The notes: generated by a model not told the origin, from the sequence alone. DNA of 64,000 bases from Escherichia coli (GCF_041248615.1 NZ_CP158426.1), one strand, 5' to 3'. Shown: positions 1-11,484, numbered from the stretch's first letter. Translations and numbers: made by a program.

Positions 1-175
1 TTTATGGCAATTCACCATAAAAATCAGCATCATGCATGTTATTGATTTGTCTTATTTTGTAAAAATATATCGTTCAAAAAACAAGCATATCTCTGTCAAT
101 TTTTTGCGTCATTTTCATCGCCCAGGCGACCTACACTTATCAGGCACTACCCGTTGTATTTATGAGGATGTCATT

Positions 176-436
176 ATGAAAAAGTGCCTCGCACTACTGA
201 TTGCCACCGTCCTGAGCGGAATCTCTCTCACGGCTTATGCCGCGCAACCGATGAGTAACCTGGACAGCGGTCAGCTACGGCCCGCCGGTACCGTTTCGGC
301 AACTGGCGCATCAAACCTAAGCGATCTGGAGGATAAACTGGCAGAAAAAGCGCGCGAACAAGGCGCGAAAGGTTATGTCATTAATTCCGCGGGCGGAAAT
401 GACCAGATGTTCGGTACTGCAACCATCTACAAATAA
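176..436 (+). CDS. mcbA: DUF1471 (YdgH/BhsA/McbA family) small secreted protein, McbA-like
   Basis: ORF 32..436 trimmed to internal ATG at 176 preceded by GAGG; 86 aa with signal peptide and DUF1471-like C-terminus; position upstream of fiu as in K-12. Confidence 0.8.
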   Translation: MKKCLALLIATVLSGISLTAYAAQPMSNLDSGQLRPAGTVSATGASNLSDLEDKLAEKAREQGAKGYVINSAGGNDQMFGTATIYK

Positions 437-571
437 CCCCACCAACGTAACTGCATTCGCCTCTGGATGCAGTTTCCGCCTGTTTTGTAATCAAAAAACA
501 TCAAATATGAACGCAATGTAAATAAATGTATTTCTTTTTCGCGCAATGGGTGATAGAAAATCGCGCCAAGT

Positions 572-598
572 GATAATGCTTATAAAAATAATTATCAC
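572..598. promoter_or_regulatory. putative Fur box in fiu promoter region
   Basis: gataatgcttataaaaataattatcac resembles the Fur consensus GATAATGATAATCATTATC; about 100 bp upstream of fiu start; fiu is a known Fur-regulated gene. Confidence 0.5.
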
Positions 599-700
599 TT
601 GCACGAACACTATCACGGGATTAACAGTGGCATCGCATCCGCAGAGAGGCTTTCTCGTGTCAGTGAAAATTTCAACATATAAGAAAAAGTCACCTGCAAA

Positions 701-2983
701 ATGGAAAACAATCGCAATTTCCCTGCCAGACAATTTCATTCGCTCACGTTCTTTGCCGGTCTTTGTATTGGTATTACGCCTGTGGCTCAGGTACTCGCCG
801 CCGAAGGGCAAACTAACGCGGATGACACGCTGGTTGTCGAAGCATCAACGCCTTCGCTTTATGCGCCACAACAATCTGCCGATCCGAAATTCTCGCGTCC
901 GGTAGCGGATACTACCCGCACGATGACGGTGATTTCTGAACAAGTGATTAAAGATCAGGGCGCAACCAACCTTACCGACGCGCTCAAAAACGTCCCCGGC
1001 GTGGGTGCGTTTTTTGCGGGTGAGAACGGTAACTCCACCACTGGCGACGCCATTTATATGCGCGGTGCCGATACCTCTAACAGTATTTATATTGATGGCA
1101 TTCGCGATATCGGCAGCGTCTCGCGCGACACCTTCAATACCGAGCAGGTCGAAGTGATTAAAGGGCCGTCCGGCACCGACTACGGGCGCAGCGCACCGAC
1201 GGGCTCGATCAATATGATCAGCAAACAGCCGCGCAATGATTCCGGCATTGACGCCTCCGCCAGTATTGGCAGCGCCTGGTTCCGCCGCGGCACGCTGGAC
1301 GTCAATCAGGTCATTGGTGATACCACTGCGGTGCGCCTGAACGTGATGGGCGAAAAAACGCACGATGCCGGACGCGACAAAGTCAAAAATGAGCGTTACG
1401 GCGTCGCCCCTTCTGTCGCTTTTGGCCTTGGTACAGCGAATCGTTTGTATCTTAATTATCTGCATGTCACCCAGCACAACACGCCAGACGGCGGCATTCC
1501 GACCATCGGTTTGCCGGGCTATTCTGCCCCATCTGCGGGAACAGCGGCCCTGAATCATTCCGGAAAAGTTGATACTCATAACTTTTACGGCACGGATTCC
1601 GATTACGACGATTCGACCACCGACACCGCTACCATGCGTTTTGAGCACGACATCAACGATAACACCACCATTCGCAATACTACCCGTTGGTCGCGCGTGA
1701 AGCAGGATTACCTGATGACGGCGATTATGGGCGGGGCGTCGAATATTACCCAGCCCACCAGCGATGTGAATAGCTGGACCTGGTCACGCACGGCGAATAC
1801 TAAAGATGTGAGTAATAAAATTCTCACCAACCAGACCAACCTGACCTCGACGTTCTATACCGGTTCTATCGGTCATGATGTCAGTACCGGCGTGGAATTT
1901 ACCCGTGAAACGCAGACTAACTACGGCGTTAATCCGGTGACGTTACCTGCGGTAAATATTTATCATCCTGACAGCAGCATTCATCCCGGCGGCCTGACGC
2001 GCAACGGCGCAAACGCCAATGGTCAGACGGATACCTTCGCAATTTACGCCTTCGATACGCTGCAAATCACCCGTGATTTTGAGCTGAACGGCGGGATCCG
2101 TCTGGATAATTATCATACTGAATATGACAGTGCCACCGCCTGCGGCGGCAGCGGACGCGGTGCCATCACCTGCCCTGCTGGCGTGGCAAAAGGTTCTCCG
2201 GTCACCACCGTCGATACCGCCAAGTCGGGCAATCTGGTGAACTGGAAAGTCGGGGCGCTGTATCACCTGACGGAAAACGGCAATGTCTATATTAACTATG
2301 CCGTTTCCCAGCAGCCTCCGGGCGGCAACAACTTCGCCCTTGCGCAGTCTGGCAGCGGTAACAGTGCCAACCGCACCGATTTTAAACCGCAAAAAGCCAA
2401 CACCAGCGAGATTGGCACCAAATGGCAGGTTCTGGATAAACGCCTGTTGCTCACCGCCGCGCTGTTCCGTACTGATATCGAAAATGAAGTTGAGCAAAAT
2501 GATGACGGAACTTACTCGCAATACGGTAAGAAACGCGTCGAAGGCTATGAGATATCCGTGGCCGGGAATATCACTCCCGCGTGGCAGGTGATTGGCGGCT
2601 ATACCCAGCAAAAAGCAACCATCAAAAACGGCAAAGATGTTGCCCAGGATGGTTCCTCATCGCTGCCGTATACCCCGGAGCACGCCTTTACCTTGTGGAG
2701 CCAGTATCAGGCAACCGATGATATTTCCGTTGGTGCGGGCGCACGCTATATCGGCAGTATGCATAAAGGTTCTGACGGCGCGGTGGGAACGCCAGCGTTT
2801 ACCGAAGGTTATTGGGTCGCCGACGCTAAACTGGGGTATCGGGTTAATCGCAATCTCGACTTCCAGCTAAACGTCTACAACCTGTTTGATACCGATTACG
2901 TCGCCTCAATCAACAAGAGCGGCTACCGTTATCACCCGGGCGAGCCAAGAACCTTCCTGCTCACGGCCAATATGCATTTCTGA
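701..2983 (+). CDS. fiu: TonB-dependent catecholate siderophore outer-membrane receptor Fiu
   Basis: 760 aa ORF; signal peptide, TonB-box/plug region and C-terminal beta-barrel ending in aromatic residue (..ANMHF); N-terminus [12 protein letters not shown] recognised. Confidence 0.93.
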
Positions 2984-3024
2984 TTCAGATGTGGGGCGCA
3001 GGCCCCACTTTTTGGAGAACTTGT

Positions 3025-3702
3025 ATGATGTACCACATTCCCGGCGTGCTATCGCCAAAGGACGTCGCCCGTTTTCGCGAACAACTGGAACAAGCCGAAT
3101 GGGTGGATGGACGCATCACCACCGGCGCACAAGGTGCGCAAGTTAAGAACAATCAACAGGTAGACACCCGCAGCACGTTATACGCCGCCCTGCAAAATGA
3201 GGTGCTGAACGCGGTTAACCAACATGCTTTGTTCTTTGCCGCGGCCTTGCCGCGTACCCTTTCCACGCCGCTGTTTAATCGCTATCAGAACAATGAAACC
3301 TATGGTTTCCATGTGGATGGCGCAGTACGCAGCCATCCACAAAACGGCTGGATGCGCACTGACCTTTCTGCCACGCTGTTTTTAAGCGATCCACAAAGCT
3401 ACGACGGCGGCGAACTGGTCGTTAATGACACCTTCGGGCAACATCGGGTAAAACTTCCGGCAGGCGATCTCGTGTTGTATCCCTCCAGCAGCCTGCATTG
3501 CGTGACGCCCGTAACCCGCGGCGTACGAGTGGCATCATTTATGTGGATCCAGTCGATGATCCGCGATGATAAAAAGCGCGCCATGCTGTTTGAACTGGAC
3601 AACAATATTCAGTCGCTGAAAAGCCGCTACGGCGAAAGTGAAGAGATCCTGTCGCTGCTCAATCTTTATCATAATCTGCTGCGGGAATGGTCGGAGATCT
3701 GA
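3025..3702 (+). CDS. ybiX: PKHD-type Fe(II)/2-oxoglutarate-dependent hydroxylase YbiX
   Basis: ORF 2989..3702 trimmed to ATG at 3025 (MMYHIPGVL..); 225 aa; immediately downstream of fiu (operon). Confidence 0.9.
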
Positions 3703-3775
3703 CGCTTGAACTGCCCGAGTTCGTCCCTATATTAGCTACACTTAACTGTACAAGTATTGATATGGGGAGGACGAT

Positions 3776-4042
3776 ATGGCATCCGGTTGGGCTAACGATG
3801 ACGCCGTCAACGAACAGATCAACAGTACAATTGAAGATGCGATTGCCCGCGCTCGGGGTGAAATTCCGCGTGGTGAAAGCCTGTATGAATGTGAAGAGTG
3901 CGGTGCCCCGATCCCACAGGCCCGTCGGGAAGCCATTCCTGGCGTGCGCTTATGCATTCATTGTCAGCAGGAGAAAGATTTACAAAAACCAGCTTATACA
4001 GGATATAATCGCAGAGGTTCGAAAGACAGCCAGTTACGTTAA
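3776..4042 (+). CDS. ybiI: DksA/TraR-family C4-type zinc-finger protein YbiI
   Basis: 88 aa; CxxC..CxxC motif (CEECGAPIP..CIHCQ). Confidence 0.88.
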   Translation: MASGWANDDAVNEQINSTIEDAIARARGEIPRGESLYECEECGAPIPQARREAIPGVRLCIHCQQEKDLQKPAYTGYNRRGSKDSQLR

Positions 4043-4306
4043 CTACAACTGACGGGATGTATAGCGAGTATAATTTGCACTTTGCGTGGCATTCCGTGCC
4101 TTTAACGCTGTCGTGACTGCCACGCTGCATAAAACAAGTCCATAAGTACAACAAATAATTGGTTTATCAGTATGTTAGATATCAATCAATTTATTTGAAC
4201 AAGGCGGTCAATTCTCTTCGATTTTATCTCTCGTAAAAAAACGTGATACTCATCACATCGACGAAACAACGTCACTTAAACAAAAATCACCTGCGAGAGA
4301 TTAATT

Positions 4307-4567
4307 ATGAAAACTATCAATACTGTTGTTGCTGCTATGGCTCTTTCAACTCTGTCATTTGGCGTGTTTGCCGCGGAACCGGTAACGGCATCCCAGGCAC
4401 AGAACATGAATAAAATCGGCGTGGTTTCTGCCGATGGCGCATCCACCCTCGATGCCCTGGAAGCGAAACTGGCTGAGAAAGCGGCGGCAGCCGGTGCCAG
4501 TGGATACAGCATCACTTCCGCCACCAACAACAATAAATTAAGCGGTACTGCGGTAATTTATAAGTAA
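4307..4567 (+). CDS. ybiJ: DUF1471 family protein YbiJ
   Basis: 86 aa; signal peptide; paralogous in sequence to the mcbA product at 176..436. Confidence 0.88.
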   Translation: MKTINTVVAAMALSTLSFGVFAAEPVTASQAQNMNKIGVVSADGASTLDALEAKLAEKAAAAGASGYSITSATNNNKLSGTAVIYK

Positions 4568-4677
4568 TTCGTAGGCGGATAAGGCGTTTCCGCTACATCC
4601 AGCACAAGTATTTCCCTGTCTGTTTGCCGACAGACGCACATGCTCTAACCCTCATTGATCCTATGTTACCCTTGTTT

Positions 4678-4704
4678 GCCCGTCCGCCACTGGACGGGCT
4701 TTTT

Positions 4705-4706
<2 letters not shown>
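4678..4706. terminator. bidirectional rho-independent terminator between ybiJ and ybiC
   Basis: gcccgtccgccactggacgggc hairpin followed by T7 run; lies between convergent genes. Confidence 0.6.
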
Positions 4707-6893
<2,187 letters not shown>

Positions 6894-6920: not shown

Positions 6921-9071
6921 TTAACGCCGCCGACGGCGTGGGGATTTCGTTTTTTCTTTCTTTTTAACTATACCTTCAGGGACTTCCGGTTGCTCTATCG
7001 GAAATACCGGTAATGCATCCAGTAGCCGCTTGCCGTAGTTTTTGGTGAGCAAGCGTTTATCGTAAATCACCACTTCGCCCCAGCAACCGTGGCTTCGAAT
7101 CAGTCGCCCAACCTGCTGAATCAGGTTAAACGAGGCGCTCGGCAGGCTTTGCACCTCAAACGGATAGCGGTTGAGGCTTTTCAGCCATTCCCCTTCGGTG
7201 ATCACCACCGGGCTGTCGATGGGCGGAAAAGCGATTTTGTGGATATGCACCTGGCTGAGCAGATCACCTTTCAAATCAAGCCCTTCGGCAAATGACTGTA
7301 AGCCCACCAGCACGCTGCGCTCACCGTTGGCGACGCGTTTGCGGTGCAGTTCAACTAAACGGTAACGCGGCTGATCGCCCTGCACCAGCAACATCAGACG
7401 TAAATCCGTCACATAATCGAGAAAGCGCTGCATCGCCCGTCCGCTGGCAAACAGTACCAACATACCGAGATGTTTTTTGCTCTCCACCTGCTCACGGAAA
7501 AAGGCCGCCATTTCGGCAATATGCTGCTCTTCGTTGTCGAGGGAAGGCTCAACGCGCATCCGGGGAATAACAATTTTGCCCTGTTCGCAGTGGTTGAAGG
7601 GGGAATCCAGCGCCACAAAACGGTCGCCCGCTTTCTCTTTCAGACCACTCATCTCCTGCAAACGCGAAAAACTATTCAGCGAACGCAAGGTTGCGGAGGT
7701 GACAATAATGTGCGGAATACTGCGCCACAGCAGCCTTTCCAGCTGATCGCTGACACGTATCCCCACGCAGTGAAACCAGAGATGCAGTTGCCCTTCGCGC
7801 TCTTCCCGCGTCGCCCATTTGGTCACCGGCGCACCGGAAGATTGCGCCAGAGACGCCAGCCGCCAGAGTTTGCTTTGCGCCTCGAACATCCCCAACGCGC
7901 GGTTCATCTGCAAAATCAACCGATGCAGGCGTACAATGTCATGGCTGCCGGTTTTCTCACTTAAATCGTTAAGAAATAACTCCGCCAGACCACGCAGCAT
8001 CTCGGTGAGTTTTGCCAGCCGCTGGCAGATCTCCAGCACTTCATCAGGCAGTTCGCCCATCGCAAAACGGTGCTCTGCCTCCTGCCCGGCAGGCATGTAG
8101 AGATTGAGAATGTTGTTTAACGAGGCGATAAGCTCATACAACTCTTCACAATGCGCATTCAAACGTTCAGGGATCGCCAGCGGTGGGATGGTCTTCGGGC
8201 GAAACTGCTCCGTGCAGGTAGCGACCAGTTTCGTGAACAAGTCCAGCTGTAGCCGATACCACGGCGCGGTGATTTCGGCGCTCATCTCCAGCGCATCCCG
8301 CGCCACATCTGGCAGGTGATGACCTTCGTCCAGCACCAGCAGCAGATTTTTCGGGTCAGGCAGTACGGCTTCGCTTTCCATCGCCGCCATCACCAGCGCA
8401 TGGTTTGCCACCACCACTTCCGCTTCCTGAATCTCCCGACGAGCAACAAAAAACGGGCATTCACGATAGTAGTAACAGTTACGGTTGAGGCAGCTGGCTT
8501 TGTCGGTACTCAAACGACGCCAGAGATCATCATCTATAGCGATATCCGTATGATCGCGCAGACCATCCCATTTATAAGTGTCGAGATCGCCCTTCAACTT
8601 TGCACAACGCTTTTGCTCTTCCTGATTGTTCGGCGTCAGCTCGTCGTCAAGAAACGCCAGCAGATCCTGTTGCGTGGGCTCAGTGCTGGCAAGCGCCGTC
8701 AGATTACGCGGGCAAACGTAGCGCCCACGCCCAAAAGCGGCAGTGAATTTAAGATCGGGAATGATCTTTTTCAGCAGTGGCAAATCTTTGCTGTAGATCT
8801 GATCCTGCAATGCTACGTTGGCGGTACTCACCACCAGCGTTTTTTGCTCTTCGCGGGCAATGGCGATACCGGGGATCAAATAGGAGAGCGTTTTCCCAAC
8901 GCCGGTGGGGGCTTCAATCGCCAGATGCCGCCCTTCTTCTCCGGCCAGCGTTTTGGCGACGTCCGCAATCATCTGCCGCTGCGGCGCACGGGGAATAAAG
9001 TCGGGGATCTGTTCCTGAAGCGCCTTATACCAGGCGGCAATTTGCGCTTTAAGCGCGGCGGTTAATGCCAT
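6921..9071 (-). CDS. dinG: ATP-dependent DNA helicase DinG
   Basis: 716 aa; Walker A GVGKT, DEGHH box, Fe-S cysteine cluster; N-terminus MALTAALKAQIAAWYKAL. Confidence 0.95.
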   Translation of the reverse strand: MALTAALKAQIAAWYKALQEQIPDFIPRAPQRQMIADVAKTLAGEEGRHLAIEAPTGVGKTLSYLIPGIAIAREEQKTLVVSTANVALQDQIYSKDLPLLKKIIPDLKFTAAFGRGRYVCPRNLTALASTEPTQQDLLAFLDDELTPNNQEEQKRCAKLKGDLDTYKWDGLRDHTDIAIDDDLWRRLSTDKASCLNRNCYYYRECPFFVARREIQEAEVVVANHALVMAAMESEAVLPDPKNLLLVLDEGHHLPDVARDALEMSAEITAPWYRLQLDLFTKLVATCTEQFRPKTIPPLAIPERLNAHCEELYELIASLNNILNLYMPAGQEAEHRFAMGELPDEVLEICQRLAKLTEMLRGLAELFLNDLSEKTGSHDIVRLHRLILQMNRALGMFEAQSKLWRLASLAQSSGAPVTKWATREEREGQLHLWFHCVGIRVSDQLERLLWRSIPHIIVTSATLRSLNSFSRLQEMSGLKEKAGDRFVALDSPFNHCEQGKIVIPRMRVEPSLDNEEQHIAEMAAFFREQVESKKHLGMLVLFASGRAMQRFLDYVTDLRLMLLVQGDQPRYRLVELHRKRVANGERSVLVGLQSFAEGLDLKGDLLSQVHIHKIAFPPIDSPVVITEGEWLKSLNRYPFEVQSLPSASFNLIQQVGRLIRSHGCWGEVVIYDKRLLTKNYGKRLLDALPVFPIEQPEVPEGIVKKKEKTKSPRRRRR

Positions 9072-9085
9072 GAGAAAACCTGAAA

Positions 9086-9105
9086 TACTGTATAAACAGC
9101 CAATA
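9086..9105. promoter_or_regulatory. LexA (SOS) box of dinG
   Basis: reverse complement reads TATTGGCTGTTTATACAGTA, the non-canonical dinG SOS box, 15 bp upstream of the dinG start. Confidence 0.75.
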
Positions 9106-9241
9106 TTGTGGCATTTTTCGGTTTTCAGGGGTAATGGTTTTTCTGTTTCTGGAAAGCGGCTCGCAATAACGTTTTCCGGATGTGAAGTTTTCTCGCGGCA
9201 GAAGAAACATCATTGTGCAGCAAAAGACATTGTACATCAGC

Positions 9242-9523
9242 TTATTCCGCTGGCGGCCATTGCAGAGCGGTATGTAAAACACGCAGTACCGAGAGCGTAT
9301 CGCCCTCCACTTGATAGACAAGCACATAATGCGGCCTGACAACGGCTTCATGTGTACCAGCGACTCGTCCGGCCCGGTACATCTCCGGGCGTTCACAGGC
9401 CTGTTCCGCAATGGCTTCAAATTGATTATCAAGGGCTATTGCCGCTAGCGGATTATCTTTACTGATGTATTCCATGATTTGCTCCCTGTCAGACAGGGAC
9501 ATTGGCTTCCATTCCAGACGCAT
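9242..9523 (-). CDS. ParE/RelE-family toxin-like protein
   Basis: 93 aa; ParE-like pattern (LEW.P......I..YI......AA...........P..G.......HE.VV.PY.LVY.V.GD.L.VLRVLH....WP); start ATG overlaps stop of upstream ORF (TAATG). Confidence 0.6.
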   Translation of the reverse strand: MRLEWKPMSLSDREQIMEYISKDNPLAAIALDNQFEAIAEQACERPEMYRAGRVAGTHEAVVRPHYVLVYQVEGDTLSVLRVLHTALQWPPAE

Positions 9524-9963
9524 TAATCCCCCTTCAGCAAGGCTTTTTTACGGGCAGCAAATAGACTTTTGGCCTCTTCATGAGAGAGTGCCGGGCGTGG
9601 ATCGTCAATGGCGGCCTGCACCTGCTCTCGAAACCAGGCATCATACGCGGCAGCTTCATGAGCTCGTTTTAATGCCTCAGCCCTGTCTGGTCGGGTCGTT
9701 TTCTTCTGACCGTCCGGGTCGTAATTAGAGGCGTCGACTTCAAACCGGGCAATACCAACATCTTTCAGGTAGTTGACAACCGTTTCCAGCCGTTTGAACA
9801 GGCGGATTTGCCGACTGCGTTGTGCTGCAAGAGGCCGTTCAGTGTGGCCGTATTTCACGGTCAACGACCAGCCTCCCTGGGTGCCAATAACGTGTGCTGC
9901 ATCCACTACGCCAGATTCAACCAGTTTATGTAAGGTTGAGTGATCGATCGTTTCTGGTGCCAT
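9523..9963 (-). CDS. putative antitoxin-like partner with extended N-terminal domain of unknown function
   Basis: 146 aa ORF with ATG start, translationally coupled to the toxin-like ORF; assignment by position only. Confidence 0.45.
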   Translation of the reverse strand: MAPETIDHSTLHKLVESGVVDAAHVIGTQGGWSLTVKYGHTERPLAAQRSRQIRLFKRLETVVNYLKDVGIARFEVDASNYDPDGQKKTTRPDRAEALKRAHEAAAYDAWFREQVQAAIDDPRPALSHEEAKSLFAARKKALLKGD

Positions 9964-10091
9964 AATGCGCTAACCTCTTTGTATACAGCATGCAATTTAT
10001 AATTAAAGATAGAGCAATTAATAATAAATTGCAGCACCTTGATCGTAAATTGCCCAGGATAAAATTGCGGTAGAAAGAGACTTGTTGCGAA

Positions 10092-10113
10092 GATGCCGGG
10101 CATCGCCCGGCAT
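10092..10113. terminator. hairpin immediately 3' of rhlE
   Basis: gatgccgggcatcgcccggcat palindrome directly after rhlE stop; weak T run. Confidence 0.4.
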
Positions 10114-10119
10114 AAAAGA

Positions 10120-11484
10120 TTACTGCGCAGCGGCAGGTTTACGCGGACGGCGGCGGCGTTGTTGTTCGCCTGCCGGTTTGGCATCGCCAAGACGACGAGA
10201 TGGTTTTTCTGCAGGCTTCGCGCTCGCAGATTTTGCGCCACCTTCAGCGCGGCGTGGTTGCTGTTGACCGCGACCACCACCTTGCCCACGACCGCCGCCG
10301 CCACGTTGCTGGCGACCGTTCTGGATTGGTTCGGCTTTGATTGACGGGTCCGGCTCATAGCCCGGAATCGCAATGCGCGGGATCTCTTTTTTCAGCAGTT
10401 TTTCGATATCACGCAGCAGTTTGTGTTCATCAACACACACCAGCGACAACGCTTCACCGGTAGCAGCCGCACGACCGGTACGCCCGATACGGTGAACATA
10501 ATCTTCCGGTACGTTTGGCAGTTCATAGTTGACCACGTGCGGCAACTCTTCGATATCCAGACCGCGCGCAGCGATGTCAGTTGCCACTAGTACACGAATA
10601 TCGCCCGATTTAAAATCAGCCAGCGCACGGGTACGCGCACCTTGCGATTTATTGCCGTGGATCGCCGCACTGCGGATGCCATCTTTATTGAGCTGTTCAG
10701 CCAGATGGTTAGCGCCATGTTTGGTACGGGTAAACACCAGCACCTGCTGCCAGTTCCCTTTCCCAATCATGTGCGACAACAATTCGCGTTTGCGTTTCTT
10801 ATCAACAAAGTGAACATGCTGGGTCACCTGATCAGACGCGGTATTGCGGCGTGCCACTTCGATTTCCAGCGGGTTGTGCAACAGTTTTTCCGCCAGAGCT
10901 TTAATATCGTCAGAGAAGGTCGCGGAGAACAACAGGTTCTGGCGCTTCGCAGGTAGTTTTGTTAACACGCGACGGATATCGTGGATAAAGCCCATGTCGA
11001 GCATGCGGTCAGCTTCATCGAGGACGAGGATTTCAACCTGATCCAGCTTCACCGCATTCTGATGTTCCAGGTCCAGCAGACGTCCCGGCGTTGCAACCAG
11101 CACATCAACGCCGCCGCGCAACTTCATCATCTGCGGGTTAATGCTGACACCGCCAAACACCACCAGCGAACGAATGTTCAGGTATTTGCTGTAATCACGG
11201 ACGTTTTCGCCAATCTGCGCCGCCAGTTCACGGGTCGGGGTAAGAATGAGCGCACGTACCGGACGACGCCCTTTGGCGTGCGGCTGGCGAGTGATCAGGT
11301 GTTGCAACAGCGGCAGCGTAAAGCCCGCTGTTTTGCCGGTGCCAGTCTGGGCGCTAGCCATCAGGTCGCGGCCTTCCAGCACCGCAGGGATCGCCTGCTG
11401 CTGAATAGGGGTGGGTTCACGGTAACCCTGCTCGGCAACGGCGCGCAGGATATCAGGGCTTAAACCCAAAGAATCGAAAGACAT
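10120..11484 (-). CDS. rhlE: ATP-dependent DEAD-box RNA helicase RhlE
   Basis: 454 aa; Q motif, [23 protein letters not shown] motifs; Gly/Arg-rich C-terminal tail. Confidence 0.95.

Follow-up and report, generated by a model that had tools for sequence, protein, structure and literature searches.

What has taken the place of ybiA in a 64,000-nt stretch of Escherichia coli DNA (GCF_041248615.1, NZ_CP158426.1; the whole stretch is hereafter the window), and how could a toxin–antitoxin pair encoded there be regulated with two genes of its own? We consider it probable that the locus, which lies between dinG and rhlE, is an intact type II toxin–antitoxin operon of the ParE/PaaA2 kind on a 921-bp islet replacing ybiA, and that it represents a self-contained two-gene version of the paaR2-paaA2-parE2 system, autorepressed through a ParC-like domain at the N-terminus of its antitoxin; toxicity, target, neutralization, DNA binding and repression are elements of this reading that we infer.

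The toxin and antitoxin genes

A scan of the window for open reading frames (ORFs), together with the domain analyses described below, gave the following features of the gene pair:

9523..9963, minus strand: antitoxin gene, 146 amino acids (aa), ATG start, WP_001522657.1, named 'antitoxin PaaA2 family protein' or 'hypothetical protein' in RefSeq
9242..9523, minus strand: ParE-class toxin gene, 93 aa, ATG start, WP_001522659.1
9526..9684, minus strand: PaaA2-like toxin-binding region of the antitoxin, residues 94-146, two helices, from hidden Markov model (HMM) searches, the PDB and a fused-chain model
9718..9963, minus strand: ParC-like domain of the antitoxin, residues 1-82, alpha-beta-beta-beta-alpha-alpha-beta, proposed DNA-binding/dimerization domain
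9790..9831, minus strand: conserved basic segment LAAQRSRQIRLFKR, residues 45-58, candidate DNA-reading element
9974..9980, minus strand: Shine-Dalgarno-like AAAGAGG, about 10 nt 5' of the antitoxin ATG, found by eye in the sequence

The two genes are joined in the sequence TAATG (plus-strand positions 9521-9525), where the antitoxin TAA (9525-9523) shares 1 nt with the toxin ATG (9523-9521), and the toxin start is preceded by a Shine-Dalgarno-like GGGGGA. A first-pass annotation, made from the sequence alone, had described two co-directional minus-strand ORFs joined at this point in the usual layout of a type II toxin–antitoxin module, and both parts of that description hold, given that the ORFs and their overlap are present and that the pairing of these small, coupled, co-directional genes is conserved across genomes. 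When one genome per species was scanned, yielding 80 loci from gamma-, beta- and alphaproteobacteria, a ParE homologue lay directly 3' of the antitoxin gene in 78 of them, the other two ending before the toxin position, and the overlap of the two genes across these loci was mostly 1 or 4 nt. Comparison with three other alleles from E. coli and Escherichia whittamii gave ratios of synonymous to non-synonymous differences of 9:1, 7:0 and 15:2 for the antitoxin and of 4:2, 10:6 and 11:2 for the toxin, so that both genes appear to be under purifying selection. Matches to the ParE_toxin and PaaA2 HMMs, recurrence in other species and the predominance of synonymous differences together establish that this is a real gene pair and not two chance ORFs.

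Chromosomal toxin–antitoxin modules often decay, and the cassette might be a domesticated or decaying remnant in which the toxin is inactive and the antitoxin has no role beyond regulation, a reading to which we give little credence. Apart from that general tendency, it could draw on Xenorhabdus nematophila (L005/L006, 3001-3590), in which a full-length antitoxin adjoining luxCE-like genes is accompanied by a ParE cut to 49 aa and is apparently an orphan, and on the allele with the 10:6 ratio, in which the toxin is relatively richer in non-synonymous change than the antitoxin. However, both ORFs of the window are full length relative to their family and have kept translational coupling and a Shine-Dalgarno-like sequence, the coding sequences are annotated as full length in the four cassette records examined (including E. 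whittamii), both genes are listed in all 25 sampled records, and synonymous changes predominate, all of which favors an operon that is still intact.

By sequence and predicted fold, the toxin is a ParE-class member of the RelE/ParE superfamily, a more precise placement than the ParE/RelE-like character first ascribed to the 93-aa protein. This assignment is based on a match to Pfam ParE_toxin (PF05016; independent E-value (i-E) 1.3e-13, model positions 1-86 of 89), on PDB sequence matches that at E < 0.1 are all ParE proteins, the closest solved relative being ParE2 of E. coli O157 (5cw7_B, E 1.7e-6), and on the ranking of structural matches. The AlphaFold2 (AF2) model of the toxin has the order beta-alpha-alpha-beta-beta-beta and a predicted local distance difference test score (pLDDT) of 89-97, and its best 18 Foldseek matches are all ParE-type (5cw7, 5czf, 5ceg, 6x0a, 8c24, 6xrw, 9w3a, 8c26, 7ycs, 3kxe), with TM-scores to ParE2 of 0.84-0.87 when normalized by target length, the highest being 0.87 to 5czf.

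The toxin could instead be a RelE-type, ribosome-dependent mRNA endonuclease and not a ParE-type topoisomerase poison, which on the available evidence is improbable. Its score against NCBIfam TIGR02385 RelE_StbE is 38.5, above the cut-off of 27.9, which accounts for the mixed names in RefSeq, where the records of several genomes carry 'mRNA interferase toxin, RelE/StbE family', and PF05016 itself spans both ParE and RelE proteins (PMC11980606). Nevertheless, no RelE, YoeB or HigB chain was found among the PDB sequence matches at E <= 1, and RelE, YoeB and YafQ rank lower in the Foldseek search, appearing only at E >= 2.6e-3. The toxin model stops right after the last strand, without a C-terminal helix, no meaningful alignment was obtained with E. 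coli RelE (using an approximate RelE sequence), and the partner protein is PaaA2-like, as is that of ParE2. As a ParE-class toxin, the 93-aa protein would poison a topoisomerase, as proposed for ParE2; the mechanism at the present locus is one that we infer, because the target of ParE2 is itself still unproven, although ParE2 does induce the SOS response and colocalize with the nucleoid (PMC8630535).

The resemblance of the antitoxin to PaaA2 lies in its C-terminal region, in agreement with the earlier impression that only the last third of the protein looks antitoxin-like. Residues 102-131 match the Pfam PaaA2 'stability determinant' family (PF21217, i-E 4.2e-10 for residues 104-130), and the C-terminus matches PDB PaaA2 3zbe with E 2e-4. 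For a fused-chain AF2 model, the antitoxin from its RPDR motif onward (residues 90-146) was joined by a (GGGGS)5 linker to the cognate toxin, and 38 paired sequences from different species were supplied. This model reached a predicted TM-score (pTM) of 0.76 despite the disordered linker, and the pLDDT of the antitoxin helices (fused-chain residues 5-31 and 39-55) was about 95, compared with 76-92 in the antitoxin modelled alone. The prediction fits a PaaA2-like wrap of the antitoxin tail around the toxin, in which the two C-terminal helices would embrace and neutralize the toxin as PaaA2 does ParE2. Like PaaA2, the antitoxin is encoded immediately 5' of a ParE2-like toxin and is predicted to bind it with two helices.

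The ParC-like domain and the promoter palindrome

The N-terminal part of about 80 aa, which the first-pass annotation had set apart from the tail, is indeed a distinct folded domain in the AF2 model of the antitoxin (overall pLDDT 79.8), composed of a helix at 8-17, strands at 20-28, 31-38 and 41-45, helices at 50-55 and 59-69 and a strand at 74-77, and followed by a linker and the long helices 94-119 and 128-145. Residues 6-83 align with NCBIfam NF041544 'ParC family partition-associated protein' over model positions 2-78 of 80, at 33 bits against a cut-off of 95. PF28031 'ParC-like' is precomputed for a 99% identical cluster, and a direct Pfam profile search of the antitoxin did not report it. 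HMM and structure searches with this domain gave no ribbon-helix-helix, Phd/YefM, AbrB/SpoVT or helix-turn-helix match and no solved relative of the ParC-like domain was found, the folds nearest to the model being those of eL38 and the FtsH N-domain. The idea of a fused or novel antitoxin class survives in its first half: the architecture is of fusion type, and it is not new to databases, being already catalogued by Pfam (PF28031 and PF21217) and in RefSeq names.

This two-domain family is widespread. A search with the whole antitoxin returned 900 homologues at E <= 0.001, of which the best 120 are about 143-201 aa long, mostly 145-150, and almost all carry both PF28031 and PF21217. A profile of the N-terminal domain alone recovered 659 clusters at 50% identity, with lengths in three ranges: 145-160 aa (the two-domain form), 110-120 aa and 80-100 aa (stand-alone). 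The full-length two-domain form occurs on plasmids of Klebsiella, Salmonella, Serratia, Rhizobium and Paraburkholderia, and the stand-alone domain on plasmids mainly of Aeromonas and Xanthomonas. Among searchable open-access papers and preprints we found no experimental study of the two-domain architecture, and no published function of this ParC family was found in the literature, so that the family, although catalogued, is apparently unstudied. Stand-alone ParC-like genes of about 90 aa were also seen on the E. coli plasmid pZ1322HEC0009-3 (L009, 3498-3767) and on an Aeromonas veronii plasmid (L092, 3477-3752), where they stand beside unrelated RelE/ParE toxin–antitoxin pairs and have neither a PaaA2 tail nor a GCAAT palindrome; the neighborhoods of such genes revealed no clear partner gene. 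A role in anti-phage defence was considered and set aside, there being no PADLOC match for either protein of the window, and the PHROGs families matched by the two proteins are all without an assigned function.

The following elements lie 5' of the antitoxin gene in the window:

10014..10032, no strand assigned: 19-bp palindrome GCAATTAATAATAAATTGC, 8 of 9 symmetric pairs, proposed operator; coding strand GCAATTTATTATTAATTGC
10006..10034, minus strand: candidate promoter enclosing the palindrome, with a -35-like CTGCAA (10034-10029), a 17-nt spacer and a -10-like TATCTT (10011-10006)
9991..10006, no strand assigned: second inverted arm TGCAATTTATAATTAA, 94% complementary to 10018-10033, with an extra half-site GCAAT (9992-9996) 3' of the -10-like element
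10049-10053 and 10064-10068, upstream: two more GCAAT half-sites in minus-strand sense, direct repeats with 21-22 bp spacing

The palindrome was sought in the 130 nt 5' of the start codon in the window and in 79 of the species loci, as GCAAW-N9-WTTGC with at most one substitution. It was present in 59 of these 80 regions, whereas 200 shuffles gave 0.8 on average and never more than 5, and it starts 52-80 nt before the ATG across loci. In the family consensus cTTGCAATcTAtTATTaATTGCgTAnnaT, whose right portion after cTTGCAAT reads ATTGCgTAnnaT, the left arm consists of a -35-like TTGCAA and the right arm is followed by a -10-like TAnnAT, an arrangement that places the palindrome between the putative promoter elements, the classical position of a repressor site. 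A consensus scan offered an alternative promoter, TTTACG-17-TATTAT, at 10049-10021. The palindrome is identical in four E. coli/E. whittamii alleles that are 16-32 nt apart in their coding regions. In E. coli GF43 (L095, NZ_CP172127.1), the promoter region carries a 21-bp tandem duplication, ATTATTAATTGCGCTATCTTT, which brings in one more ATTGC half-site along with a second -10-like element.

PaaA2 is a protein of 63-71 aa without a DNA-binding motif and relies on a third gene, paaR2, which encodes a CI-like repressor (PMC8630535). In the cassette, an ORF scan and the annotation of 9171-10091 revealed no regulator gene or other third gene, and the N-terminal domain is the only candidate DNA binder of the operon, since its tail is homologous to PaaA2, described as free of such a motif, and nothing else is encoded there. 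The most conserved basic stretch of the domain is LAAQRSRQ(V/I)RLF(K/R)(K/R), residues 45-58, in which Q48, R49 and R54 are invariant in the family alignment and R51 nearly so. When loci were divided according to this segment, the palindrome (at most two substitutions) accompanied 52 of the 55 with a canonical AQR[STN][RHGQ] and 6 of the 14 without it, with a Fisher p of 4.5e-5 that ignores the shared ancestry of related loci and so overstates the evidence. Two groundwater metagenome-assembled genomes of Betaproteobacteria/Proteobacteria (L059 and L068) have TCACTT-AATAATA-AAGTGA about 65 nt 5' of the antitoxin start, in the same geometry (TCACT-N9-AGTGA), and their antitoxins read QRG-KVRLF for QRSRQVRLF and AINH for TIDH, a combined change of operator and segment that may represent a switch in binding specificity.

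This covariation of palindrome and segment, together with the lack of a DNA-binding motif in PaaA2 and of a further gene in the cassette, leads us to propose the ParC-like domain as the operator-binding module. The domain would dimerize and bind the 19-bp GCAAT-N9-ATTGC, and through it the operon would be autorepressed on the palindrome, self-contained in two genes. The broader proposition, that ParC-like is an unrecognized class of antitoxin DNA-binding domain with an alpha/beta fold distantly like that of eL38, reading GCAAT-N9-ATTGC through QRSRQxRxF, and that the family is the 'complete' two-component form of PaaA2/ParE2, has in our estimation about an even chance of being right.

The dependence among related loci noted above is one of several points that weigh against the reading proposed here. 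The N-terminal domain was modelled with medium confidence (pLDDT 70-86), lowest across the proposed reading segment; the antitoxin scores 47.1 bits against NCBIfam NF050103 (PaaA2-type, named RelB family antitoxin), just under the cut-off of 50; and, with one mismatch allowed, the palindrome is missing from 21 of the 80 loci. No such palindrome was found upstream of the stand-alone ParC-like genes of a small E. coli plasmid and a Xanthomonas plasmid, the latter gene having a different palindrome upstream. Moreover, the palindrome is the sole GCAAW-N9-WTTGC match in the 64-kb window but 0.83 would be expected by chance, and because this single occurrence is not significant, the argument for an operator rests on conservation across species. 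The same count led us to drop the idea of a regulon, as there was no sign of more targets in the window.

It is also possible, though unlikely, that the locus is a ParE/PaaA2 module in which the ParC-like domain does not bind DNA and serves instead in oligomerization, in stability control or in contact with proteins of plasmid partition or of the host; the palindrome would then be bound by another factor or be plain promoter architecture. The only named relatives of the domain are 'partition-associated' ParC proteins of unknown mechanism, the folds closest to it, those of eL38 and the FtsH N-domain, do not belong to transcription factors that bind DNA, stand-alone ParC-like genes occur without the palindrome, and PaaA2-ParE2 reportedly forms large oligomers (5cw7 papers). 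On the other hand, the palindrome travels with the operon over alpha-, beta- and gammaproteobacteria in unrelated genomic contexts, which makes a host factor unlikely, changes in the basic segment coincide with a changed or lost half-site, and the cassette encodes no other regulator. For these reasons we favor operator binding by the ParC-like domain.

The dinG-rhlE interval

The islet, delimited by pairwise alignment with K-12, and its neighboring genes are placed as follows:

9171..10091, no strand assigned: cassette, 921 bp, replacing about 706 unrelated bp of K-12 (ybiA and a repetitive extragenic palindromic (REP)-like element) between the dinG promoter region and the rhlE terminator
6921-9071, minus strand: dinG
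10120-11484, minus strand: rhlE

In K-12 MG1655, the interval is occupied by ybiA (483 bp), which encodes the N-glycosidase YbiA and runs in the direction opposite to dinG. The ORF scan of the window found no plus-strand ORF of that size between dinG and rhlE, as had been noticed at first sight, and the alignment runs in identity through window position 9170 and picks up again at about 10092, where the terminator hairpin of rhlE lies, the breaks in homology falling at 9170/9171 and about 10091/10092. At megablast sensitivity, the cassette-bearing strain 7/2 has no ybiA elsewhere in its genome, because the K-12 segment was matched there only by its REP part, at another place in the genome. These two results bear out the first-pass proposal that the pair replaces ybiA.

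Of 5,426 complete E. coli genomes, 324 (about 6%) carry the 921-bp segment, always as a single chromosomal copy and never on a plasmid, with 236 copies at >=99% identity and 88 at 95-99%; the K-12 type of ybiA segment was found at >=80% coverage in 3,429 genomes. Some other E. coli genomes, e.g., strains such as Nissle (EcN), have a divergent 'NADAR family protein' allele at the locus, and in E. coli SF-088 (L003, NZ_CP012635.1) recombinase and phage tail-fibre genes (3138-6059) adjoin dinG. With this prophage-like DNA as a further state, the dinG-rhlE interval has at least four: the ybiA of K-12, the divergent 'NADAR family' allele, the toxin–antitoxin cassette and prophage-like DNA. The cassette also occurs in the same dinG-rhlE context in Escherichia whittamii (L012, NZ_JACSQI010000012.1, 1-3438), with 94% DNA identity to the window over 3.4 kb and an antitoxin protein that is 99% identical, which points to an old polymorphism or to interspecies exchange.

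An origin as a mobile element was considered and rejected, as no integrase, insertion sequence (IS) element or direct repeats were found at the cassette junctions and the GC content of the cassette (0.45-0.55) is unremarkable. The cassette looks like an islet swapped by homologous recombination of its flanks. The right-hand recombination boundary is marked by the rhlE terminator hairpin, a perfect 9-bp inverted repeat (ATGCCGGGC / GCCCGGCAT) at 10093-10113, kept just outside the cassette. On the other side, 66 bp beyond the cassette edge, the sequence TACTGTATAAACAGCCAATA (CTGT-N8-ACAG) at 9086-9105 is the SOS (LexA) box of the published dinG operator. Between the toxin stop (9242) and dinG, a scan of the minus strand gave no terminator, and since the operon is co-directional with dinG, read-through from the toxin–antitoxin operon into this SOS gene is conceivable from the sequence.

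Known systems and biological meaning

PaaA2-ParE2 is a structural model for disordered antitoxins and is regarded as atypical because its antitoxin is devoid of a DNA-binding domain and regulation falls to a separate repressor. The system closest to that of the window is paaR2-paaA2-parE2 of the E. coli O157:H7 prophage CP-933P (3ZBE, 5CW7, 5CZE, 5CZF), which supplies the closest solved relative of the toxin and a homologue of the antitoxin tail, with the same two helices predicted, and in which the antitoxin gene likewise lies 5' of the toxin gene. Unlike that system, the cassette has no paaR2, its antitoxin is 146 aa long with an added ParC-like domain, and it is a chromosomal islet, whereas the O157 system belongs to a prophage immunity region. 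The traits that define PaaA2, a small antitoxin free of a DNA-binding domain and a regulator encoded by a third gene, are absent from the window locus.

ParD-ParE modules (RK2, Caulobacter 3KXE, Mesorhizobium 5CEG, M. tuberculosis 8C24, P. aeruginosa 6XRW, V. cholerae ParDE2) share with it a ParE-fold toxin, two genes with the antitoxin first, an ordered antitoxin N-domain with a toxin-wrapping C-terminal region and an expected autoregulation at the operator; however, the N-domain of ParD is a ribbon-helix-helix, and that of the window antitoxin is alpha-beta-beta-beta-alpha-alpha-beta. From sequence and models, the locus would work like a two-gene ParD/ParE module with a different N-terminal fold, autoregulation being part of the proposal. 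In ParE_SO/CopA_SO of the Shewanella prophage CP4So (PMC8706911), the antitoxin reportedly has a DNA-binding N-terminal domain that is ordered and a neutralizing C-terminus that is disordered, and is said to bind inverted repeats in the promoter. This resembles the present pairing of a ParE toxin with a two-part antitoxin, although no relationship in sequence was detected, CopA_SO being absent from all searches, and its operator motif is different. As for the ParC proteins of NF041544/PF28031, their model is covered over its full length by the first 80 residues of the antitoxin, and plasmids commonly carry stand-alone versions of 80-120 aa, but the score remains far under the NF041544 cut-off, and in the window the domain continues into a PaaA2 tail and has ParE, not parA/parB, as its partner.

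As a toxin–antitoxin module the locus is unsurprising, and the new point is possibly a new antitoxin DNA-binding domain with its conserved operator. For E. coli genomics, it provides a clean allelic replacement of a core-genome gene, in which the ybiA N-glycosidase has given way to a toxin–antitoxin islet directly upstream of dinG. For the family, the same toxin-binding tail is found joined to an unstudied domain and preceded by a strongly conserved promoter palindrome, across chromosomes and plasmids of Proteobacteria. It has been asked whether an ancestor of PaaA2 lost a DNA-binding domain by decay (PMC8630535), and the two-domain family could well represent the undecayed form, or else an independent fusion; the 'complete' form, if true, would bear on that question of descent. 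Should the domain bind the palindrome, a new fold would join the short list of antitoxin DNA-binding domains, the 'ParC-like' proteins that are frequent on plasmids would gain a function, and a simple two-gene system would become available for the study of ParE2-type toxins.

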